Source: a virus
Length of the DNA stretch: 64,000 nt
IMG/VR virus record: IMGVR_UViG_3300045125_000127
Reading direction: 5' to 3' (one strand)
In this document: piece by piece, positions 3,786 to 4,092 of the stretch
Position numbering within the stretch: position 1 is the first letter of the stretch
Layout of the letters: the number at the start of each line of letters is the position of its first letter
Notes under the pieces: model-generated
Databases searched by the model: none
Told to the model about the DNA's origin: nothing
The model's input: only the letters and a program-made list of their open reading frames with translations
Position numbers and translations under genes: made by a program

Positions 3786-4092
3786 CAGTCCTTTGCCTAA
3801 TTTTTTGGCAAAAAGGACTGCATAACCTCGGAAATACTCAAAATCAGTTCAGTAGAAACTGTTTTGAGGGCCGCACTCTTGGCTACCGCATTGCGAGTTC
3901 AAGGGCGTTTCGAGTTAGCACAATCGCCTAATCAGCGATTGTAACTGGCGACGGTTGTCCCGGCAGGTAAGCCGTGAGCGGGGTTTCACTTAGAATAGCC
4001 GAAATAAGGCCCACCAAAGAAGGTGGGCACGAATAAGGCGAATAGTAGTGAAGATACCGTATACCGACCCCGGCGTGTTCTGAAACGCCGGG
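3786..4092 (+). ncRNA. candidate large ornate ncRNA (~300 nt or more)
   Basis: No ORF of 60 aa or more in 3720-4200; at least 8 stems incl. CAGTCCTTTGCC/GGC..AAAGGACTG, CTCAAAA-CAGTT/AACTGTTTTGAG, ACAATCGC/GCGATTGT, GCCCACC/GGTGGGC, CCCGGCGT/ACGCCGGG. Confidence 0.65.

Follow-up and report, generated by a model that had tools for sequence, protein, structure and literature searches.

A conserved, uncatalogued structured RNA upstream of tRNA-Arg in huge phages, tentatively read as a tRNA leader

Background

The tRNA and RNA islands of huge phages are large, and their control is essentially unknown. Among the phage RNAs which may serve for comparison, GOLLD, ROOL and the species 1 and 2 RNAs of T4 are suspected to act in trans or as structural particles. 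Here we describe an element at positions 3786-4092 of the IMG/VR virus record IMGVR_UViG_3300045125_000127. This stretch of 64,000 nt, a piece of an uncultured huge phage, is called the window in its full length, and all positions are numbered along it. The element is located between a small open reading frame (ORF) with a SEC-C motif (3523-3720, PF02810) and the gene for tRNA-Arg with the anticodon TCT (4097-4168, plus strand), which stands directly downstream of the folded RNA. A first-pass annotation had seen a large intergenic RNA here and had likened it to GOLLD (RF01998) and ROOL (RF03087); for both of these a location close to phage and prophage tRNA islands has indeed been described (bioRxiv 10.1101/2024.12.08.627333).

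Other systems resemble single parts of the locus. The arrest core is ..GIRAGP in EcSecM and HAPIRGSP in MsSecM, where 8 residues suffice; RAPP and RGPP are arrest cores too, and RDPP and RSPP are partly permissive (PMC12526060, PMC12992588). The Brt RNAs of Bartonella are 194-203 nt long and abundant, and each is found upstream of a helix-turn-helix (HTH) gene, with little read-through (PMC5387305).

Results

A large RNA held together by compensatory base changes

The plus strand of 3786-4092 folds at -120.3 kcal/mol, compared with -88.0 +/- 4.9 kcal/mol for shuffled sequences (z -6.55), and none of 100 shuffles was as good. For the longer segment 3722-4096 a z of -6.57 was obtained. The minus strand of the element also folds well (z -5.46); the plus strand was chosen because the conserved helices contain many G-U pairs and because it has the same orientation as the tRNA. 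The absence of coding capacity from these approximately 310 nt, on which the first-pass annotation had relied, was borne out, as 3786-4092 contains no ORF of at least 60 aa on either strand.

A search with Rfam 15 agrees with its failure to recognise by eye a core of RNase P, transfer-messenger RNA (tmRNA), signal recognition particle (SRP) RNA or a group I/II intron, since no such match was obtained even at E<=10. Within the window only the tRNAs reach the gathering scores, and all that is found at E<=10 between 3300 and 4300 are chance-level hits of 14-17 bits. The same search of the related loci and of the bacterial module loci described below yielded no family that covers the RNA or the module. 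Taken as membership, the proposed likeness to GOLLD and ROOL did not hold: neither covariance model of Rfam 15 matched, nor did HEARO, and therefore this RNA is not GOLLD or ROOL, as far as such models show. A BLAST search against a phage collection matched the tRNA only, and no relatives were found through the PD-(D/E)XK protein of the window.

Relatives became accessible through another neighbouring protein, which led to L001, a 532-kb IMG/VR contig. From the block conserved between L001 and the window a DNA pattern was derived, and with it L007 (462-kb contig), L014 (78 kb), L017 and L020 (340 kb) were found; L018 and L023 are the same sequence as L014, and L024 (identical to L025) was added by protein look-up. 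This makes six further distinct copies of the homologous RNA, all from uncultured huge-phage and metagenome contigs. L001 is syntenic with the window over tRNA-Thr(CGT), the SEC-C gene, a stretch of approximately 325 nt and tRNA-Arg(TCT). All homologous RNAs end 4-10 nt before a tRNA-Arg(TCT) or a tRNA-Arg(CCT).

The seven distinct RNAs were aligned with plain MAFFT and folded with RNAalifold. The consensus has 40 base pairs, 13 of them with compensatory changes, a number reached by none of 500 shuffles. In an independent count on this alignment 94.2% of the cells were paired, versus 31-44% when the partners were slid against each other. The first-pass annotation had proposed a homolog search and a test for covariation; relatives exist, and in the alignment counted here their helices covary. 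The element is a real, large, conserved and uncatalogued structured RNA, kept by compensatory base changes. A covariance model of its core, R1, finds a single match in the window (66 bits, 3993-4041) and one convincing match apiece in three huge-phage records that were searched whole. The window clearly shares the 3' two thirds of the RNA with its relatives; the 5' third, with hairpin 2 and a helix CTCGGAAA/TTTCGAG, is its own and is unsupported.

An invariant loop module shared with bacteria

The centre of the conserved part is a rod at 3978-4060 (plus strand, as all parts of the RNA), with an outermost helix GCGG/CCGU followed by UUCACU/AGUGAA. The first-pass annotation had noticed the latter as TTCACT/AGTGAA; the helix is present (3985-3990/4047-4052), but instead of closing two hairpins it closes one rod, inside which a 3-bp helix and an apical 7-bp hairpin are parted by two symmetric A-rich internal loops. 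From outside to inside these are an internal loop UAGAAUA/GAAUAGU, the helix P2 (GCC/GGC, 3998-4000/4037-4039), the invariant loops GAAAUAAG (4001-4008) and ACGAAUAA (4029-4036), and the apical hairpin GCCCACC-AAAGAA-GGUGGGC (4009-4028). The GAATA-type words which had also been pointed out are real (3991-3998, 4000-4008, 4030-4037 and 4039-4045) and are the most conserved part of the element. In general terms, the order of the module is a closing stem, an A-rich symmetric loop, the 3-bp P2, 5'-GAAMUAAG-3', the hairpin P2a, 5'-ACGAAUAA-3' and P2'. The apical loop of the window (4016-4021) contains AGA, and the downstream tRNA is Arg-UCU; in the five relatives that precede a tRNA-Arg-CCU the same loop contains AGG, and L001 is ambiguous. 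This correspondence may be a coincidence in purine-rich loops.

The DNA pattern also matched metagenome contigs and genomes of Pasteurellaceae as well as one alphaproteobacterial metagenome-assembled genome (MAG). With R1, matches were obtained in 33 of 151 Pasteurellaceae genomes and in 8 of 151 genomes from the order of this MAG, where one genome has as many as 6 copies and another has 4. The model found none in 150 sampled genomes of other Gammaproteobacteria and none in 150 of other Alphaproteobacteria, and a megablast search with a Pasteurellaceae element gave no match in E. coli genomes. Seven further loci (L004, L005, L012, L022, L027, L032 and L036) were rejected as chance hits of the pattern, scoring only 22-28 bits with R1 and lacking the hairpin and the context.

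In an alignment of 26 copies of the module (A6) both 8-nt loops are essentially invariant. The helices P2 and P2a are paired to 99.4%, with compensatory changes in 9 of their 10 pairs, in an alignment that was fitted to the model and hence leans toward structure. Among the variants of P2 are GCC/GGC, CGC/GCG, ACC/GGU, UCC/GGA, GUU/GAC and ACG/CGU. In the bacterial copies the module forms one arm at the centre of a three-way junction, in which covariation extends to the closing helix P1 and to a third hairpin. For the 5' strand of P1 there is competition from a hairpin further upstream, and a terminator-like hairpin directly follows the junction; in the alphaproteobacterial copies the latter is clearly an intrinsic terminator. 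Of the 15 bacterial copies that were read, 13 continue with a Shine-Dalgarno (SD) sequence and an ATG on the same strand, often of an XRE-type HTH gene. Since the module stands before a terminator-like hairpin and then a same-strand SD-ATG, the bacterial layout is of the leader type.

The three-way-junction RNAs of Pasteurellaceae are found at L016 (808-903), at L019 (Pasteurella phage Pmp8, 1501-1681), L026 and L028-L031. In the Pasteurellaceae contigs which were checked with Rfam, the module is located approximately 400 nt downstream of C4/isrK-type RNAs, and we read these regions as P4-like satellites or prophages. The Pmp8 record, 15 kb in size, contains excisionase and primase genes; there the module is followed by the terminator-like hairpin and an operon ending in the primase gene, and the module region is annotated within a coding sequence for a 'transcriptional repressor'. 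The alphaproteobacterial loci (L048 and L059-L067, from genomes G005, G173, G203, G220, G232, G247, G290 and G297) are multi-copy units of approximately 200 nt, in which a site resembling a promoter is combined with hairpins, the junction that bears the module and an intrinsic terminator; most of these units precede XRE-type HTH genes. At L061 two units stand in tandem with no ORF between them.

A constrained mini-ORF in front of the RNA

In all relatives a short frame beginning with ATG lies immediately 5' of the RNA, and an SD-like sequence precedes most of these frames. The frames start with MNIYKPIRDGP.. in L014, MDIYKPIRDGP.. in L020 and L024, MTNIYKPIRDGP.. in L007, MQKLYKRIRDGP.. in L017 and MTEANKSTSNRIRDGP.. 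in L001. Over the eight codons of (Y/S)(K/N)(P/R)IRDGP the pairwise differences are distributed 10:13:62 among codon positions 1:2:3, and all eight third positions vary. Within the clade of L014, L020 and L024, codons 1-11 show 6 synonymously and 2 non-synonymously changed codons; after GP the corresponding figures are 2/15 and then 4/17. The homologous frame after GP is shifted or stopped in L001, L007 and L017. Because the codon signal is lost after GP and the frames shift or stop in relatives, the peptide is selected only up to ..RDGP; this putative arrest segment is under selection at the protein level. The description of the element as intergenic therefore stands for most of its length, which is non-coding, but not for its beginning, where the relatives have a mini-ORF leading in, the frame of which continues without constraint on the protein.

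The counterpart in the window runs from an ATG at 3756 to a TAA ending at 3800 (plus strand) and, as sequenced, reads MEKYGKRSRRQSFA* where the relatives have M..(Y/S)(K/N)(P/R)IRDGP. If one G is dropped from the run in CGGAGAC it reads ..KRSRDSP.., and hairpin 1 then begins exactly at the S-P codons. The window copy is either degenerate or carries a one-base sequence error. The suggestion that the RNA might reach 5' to about 3722 was not confirmed: the homologous unit begins with the mini-ORF at 3756, and 3722-3755 aligns with the 3' portion of the SEC-C-motif gene that adjoins the RNA in L001.

The core of the relatives is RDGP, preceded by (P/R)I, that of the window is RRQS, or RDSP only after removal of the one G. 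RDGP was not found among the arrest motifs given in PMC12526060 and PMC12992588. Judged from sequence, the peptide of the relatives resembles the SecM/RAPP arrest motifs. In every lineage a hairpin begins at the Pro codon or at the codon before it. A ribosome with this Pro in its A site would be incompatible with the first hairpin, because the 5' arm of the latter begins at that codon.

Further helices of the RNA

The helices that had been listed from the sequence of the window (12-bp hairpins at 3787-3819 and 3837-3868, an 8-bp hairpin at 3920-3942, TTCACT/AGTGAA and the last hairpin at 4068-4092) are all present. A multiloop helix CTCGGAAA/TTTCGAG fared differently; it appears in one minimum free energy structure, is missing in another and could not be aligned to the relatives, and for these reasons we regard it as unsupported.

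The 5' arm of hairpin 1 (AGUCCUUUGCC / GGCAAAAAGGACU, 3787-3819) starts from the codons that match G/S-P of the mini-ORF. At or beside the Pro codon, L014 has CCAGAC..GUUUGG with AGAAA/UUUCU inside, L020 has CCAAAC..GUUUGG with AGCAUU/AAUGCU inside, and L001 has CUGCCCAAACU/AGUUUGGGCGG. By eye, these first hairpins covary, those of L014 and L020 with different inner stems within the same outer stem. Hairpin 2 (3837-3868, CUCAAAAUCAGUU / AACUGUUUUGAG), of 12 bp interrupted by one bulge, is peculiar to the window copy and could not be aligned to the relatives. Hairpin 3 (3876-3905), CUCUUGG..CAAGGG with an inner stem CGC/GCG, occupies the position of a small hairpin which by eye covaries among the relatives (AAUCUC/GAGAUU, AUCCC/GGGAU, GCGAA/UUCGC and AGUC/GACU). 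In hairpin 4 (3913-3946) AGUUA/UAACU (3913-3917/3942-3946) closes an inner hairpin ACAAUCGC/GCGAUUGU at 3920-3942 with the loop CUAAUCA; relatives have CCCUG-GCCACCGG..CCGAGAU-CAGGG at this position, so that the word AUCAG is common to them and the window and the stems are different.

The small hairpin CGGC-AGGUAA-GCCG (3961-3974) has counterparts with covarying stems of the UGGCA/UGUCA type and a conserved loop CUGGCAGGC. In all lineages, pairing of this loop with the 3' tail that immediately precedes the tRNA is plausible by eye and would give a pseudoknot, which was left out of the pair counts since MAFFT sets the partners in different columns. At the 3' end the window has a G+C-rich hairpin, CCCCGGCGU-GUUCUGA-ACGCCGGG (4068-4092), then AUUU. 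With its last pair at 4092 and the tRNA beginning at 4097, the RNA does end 4 nt short of tRNA-Arg, as had been noted. In a terminator scan this hairpin does not score as an intrinsic terminator. At its position L001 has GCUGCC/GGCAGC and the other relatives only CAGA/UCUG.

Genomic neighbourhood

The SEC-C-motif gene upstream of the mini-ORF (window 3523-3755, plus strand) is frameshifted, with CPCGS and KRCC in separate frames, and lacks approximately 250 nt of its C-terminal part. Its counterpart in L001 is intact and codes for 145 aa. This state fits an error-prone assembly together with a real deletion. ORFs are short across the whole window. Recoding of stop codons was considered for this, and no reassignment of a single stop gives back long frames convincingly; assembly errors are the more likely cause. 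As the SEC-C gene is frameshifted and the ORFs are short throughout, we hold single-base insertions and deletions in the window suspect. Further upstream, after tRNA-Thr(CGT), window 3323-3474 is conserved with L001 8968-9110, inside a 72%-identical block (3250-3751).

Just past tRNA-Arg(TCT) the window has a gene for a PD-(D/E)XK endonuclease at 4202-4546 (plus strand; PF11645 PDDEXK_5, E 1e-19; phrog_5018). Only about 300 nt separate tRNA-Arg(TCT) from tRNA-Arg(CCT) in L001, and the window holds an extra segment of approximately 1.2 kb (4168-5390). This segment has the look of a free-standing cassette with a homing-endonuclease gene within a tRNA cluster, by analogy with segB beside the tRNA-Arg of T4. 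The counterpart of the L001 tRNA-Arg(CCT) is located at about 5393-5465 (plus strand) and is not called by ARAGORN; it differs in the 5' acceptor strand and in the T-loop (GGTGCAATTCC vs GGTTCGACTCC) and is either a decayed tRNA or affected by sequencing errors.

Discussion

With GOLLD and ROOL the element has in common that it is a large multi-helix phage RNA beside a tRNA. It differs in that it is about half as long (approximately 300 nt vs roughly 580 to over 800 nt), has a mini-ORF in front and shares its core module with bacterial leader RNAs that stand before terminator-like hairpins. The T4 species 1 and 2 RNAs (rnaC and rnaD) are small stable phage RNAs that likewise stand directly beside tRNA-Arg in a tRNA cluster, downstream of it, whereas the RNA of the window is upstream. 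The T4 cluster holds the homing endonuclease gene segB, where the window holds the PD-(D/E)XK gene. When R1 was run with filters off on the T4 tRNA region, the best score was 6.3 bits, with no match to rnaC or rnaD.

The mini-ORF finds its closest likeness in SecM and RAPP systems (EcSecM, MsSecM and the RAPP proteins ApdA/ApdP), where a short upstream ORF has a constrained end R-x-[G/P/S]-P after PI. Comparing KPIRDGP of the relatives with APIRGSP of MsSecM, the cores resemble each other and PI precedes both. As in secM-secA, an RNA hairpin that a stalled ribosome would open is located directly downstream, by analogy at least. On the other hand, the core is RDGP, the peptide has 11-16 residues and no secretion signal, and a tRNA is found downstream rather than a component of Sec or YidC.

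Riboswitch and attenuator leaders resemble the element in another respect, namely that invariant unpaired nucleotides are framed by covarying helices, as is characteristic of an aptamer core; this is what alignment A6 displays. The bacterial copies, furthermore, have the three-way junction, the competing upstream hairpin, the terminator-like hairpin and usually a gene start. Unlike in riboswitch leaders, the terminator overlaps the closing helix by no more than 2-3 nt, and the huge-phage version has neither the third arm nor any clear terminator. In layout the alphaproteobacterial units are like the Brt/Trp pairs of Bartonella (Trp being XRE-type HTH proteins), as they are multi-copy, about 200 nt long, end in a terminator and stand just upstream of an HTH gene. 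The comparison with Brt covered this layout and a probe fragment, in which ..ACAGAAUAAAUCC.. is suggestive of a similar loop. A functional analogy is also conceivable with putL and putR of HK022, folded phage RNAs which act in cis before terminators, although R1 has no match in HK022.

We tentatively read window 3756-4096 as a composite 5' leader, or riboregulator, of the phage tRNA-Arg gene, belonging to an RNA family that has not been described before and released by RNase P, and we hold this with somewhat less than even confidence. It builds on the structure and its conservation, the linkage of a single copy to tRNA-Arg, the shared module, which in bacteria has a setting like that of a leader, and the constraint seen at the codon level in the mini-ORF. 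From these we infer a stalling ribosome, a partner of the module and a regulatory outcome. The unit would be co-transcribed with tRNA-Arg. A ribosome pausing with the Pro codon of the mini-ORF in its A site would melt the first hairpin and thereby let the downstream RNA refold, and the invariant module would dock a conserved partner, which might be a protein, RNA polymerase or a small ligand. Pausing and docking together would set the amount of mature tRNA-Arg through read-through, processing or stability. Finally, the leader, about 300 nt in length, would become a discrete RNA when RNase P cleaves at the 5' end of the tRNA. The recurrence of the core in bacterial leaders, before terminator-like hairpins and genes, points by analogy to a cis-acting leader at least as much as to a free-standing ornate RNA.

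Several observations weigh against such a leader. In the window, a terminator scan gave no passing candidate in the interval from the module to the tRNA, where the relatives show nothing more than small hairpins. Constrained folding that mimics a stalled ribosome gave no rearrangement common to six RNAs. The alphaproteobacterial terminator does not compete with the junction helix, and the tandem units at L061, which have no ORF between them, accord equally with a leader and with a small RNA on its own. As sequenced, the mini-ORF of the window reads RRQS, without the motif, and its SD is weak. With its 11-16 residues the arrest-like peptide is very short, and since it lacks an exported N-terminal domain there is nothing obvious to relieve a stall.

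The main alternative, possible though not probable, is that a stable, processed non-coding RNA is made here which works in trans or forms a structural particle, and to which the tRNA merely contributes the RNase P cut defining the 3' end. The 3' hairpin or the pseudoknot would then protect the end, and the mini-ORF would be a separate small feature or a 5' stabiliser. Such a role would suit an RNA that is large, has many helices, is conserved along its whole length and adjoins a tRNA, like GOLLD and ROOL and like rnaC and rnaD beside the tRNA-Arg of T4. It would suit the bacterial module RNAs too, which resemble units of roughly 200 nt running from promoter to terminator, are present several times in some genomes (6 and 4 matches), occur once in tandem without an intervening ORF and match the Brt RNAs as reported (PMC5387305), insofar as the layout is compared. 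However, 13 of the 15 bacterial copies that were read, and all phage copies, have a gene or tRNA of the same orientation a short way downstream, which is more typical of leaders. Another candidate is a cis-acting processive antiterminator like HK022 putL/putR, in which the module binds the transcribing RNA polymerase and allows read-through of hairpins, terminators and Rho sites in the untranslated tRNA and RNA island. The bacterial elements have the order module, terminator-like hairpin, genes; in the phages the module heads a run of tRNA and RNA genes; and its invariant loops suggest a universal partner, for instance RNA polymerase. Nevertheless we consider this explanation quite unlikely. 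On the whole HK022 record the best score of R1 is 10 bits, at 5517-5541 among structural genes and outside the put sites, nothing is found in P1, and the mini-ORF is left unexplained.

The translated mini-ORF, followed at once by a structured RNA and then by a tRNA-Arg gene, also brings to mind a classical leader-peptide attenuator, in which the speed of translation at Arg codons read by the downstream tRNA selects the fold of the RNA. Yet the Arg codons are CGT, CGA, CGC or AGG depending on the relative, with no run of AGA/AGG, no terminator/antiterminator pair was found between the RNA and the tRNA, and no alternative fold common to the RNAs appeared; an attenuator of this kind is thus very unlikely. 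Hardly credible, finally, is a decayed or mis-assembled protein-coding gene with frames broken by sequencing errors, even though frameshifts such as that in the SEC-C gene are present in the assembly, short ORFs are found window-wide, and in three close relatives a frame of 67 codons is open through the RNA. Past codon 11 the substitutions in these are not codon-like (2 synonymous vs 15 non-synonymous, then 4 vs 17), the homologous frame is shifted or stopped in L001, L007 and L017, the helices covary, and the core recurs in unrelated non-coding contexts in bacteria. As a protein family the 67-aa frame was rejected as well; a protein search gave only two near-identical hits, and the substitutions are not codon-like.

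Returning to the leader of tRNA-Arg, a more far-reaching version of it can be formulated for the module itself. The GAAMUAAG / ACGAAUAA module might be a new sensor or docking element, such as a riboswitch aptamer or a site for RNA polymerase or the ribosome, which in huge phages became joined with a SecM-like arrest mini-ORF to gate the production of phage tRNA. We regard this as rather unlikely.

Conclusion

The RNA is best seen as an uncatalogued family of a kind that is already known, the leader or ornate RNAs of phages and mobile elements. Its unusual features are the invariant loop module and the arrest-like mini-ORF. We know of no published account of control by an arrest peptide over a tRNA gene. 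For the tRNA and RNA islands of huge phages, the locus provides a concrete and testable unit in which a mini-ORF for a stall-like peptide, an RNA of about 300 nt with helices supported by covariation, and a tRNA follow one another. In addition, it delimits a compact RNA module, the loops of which contain 16 invariant nucleotides. This module occurs in mobile elements of Haemophilus/Pasteurella and of alphaproteobacteria, which are tractable or nearly so, and therefore its partner could become identifiable there. Should the peptide indeed stall ribosomes, arrest control of the RAPP type would be extended to phages and to an output other than protein; should the module prove to bind a ligand or RNA polymerase, it would represent a new class of regulatory RNA.

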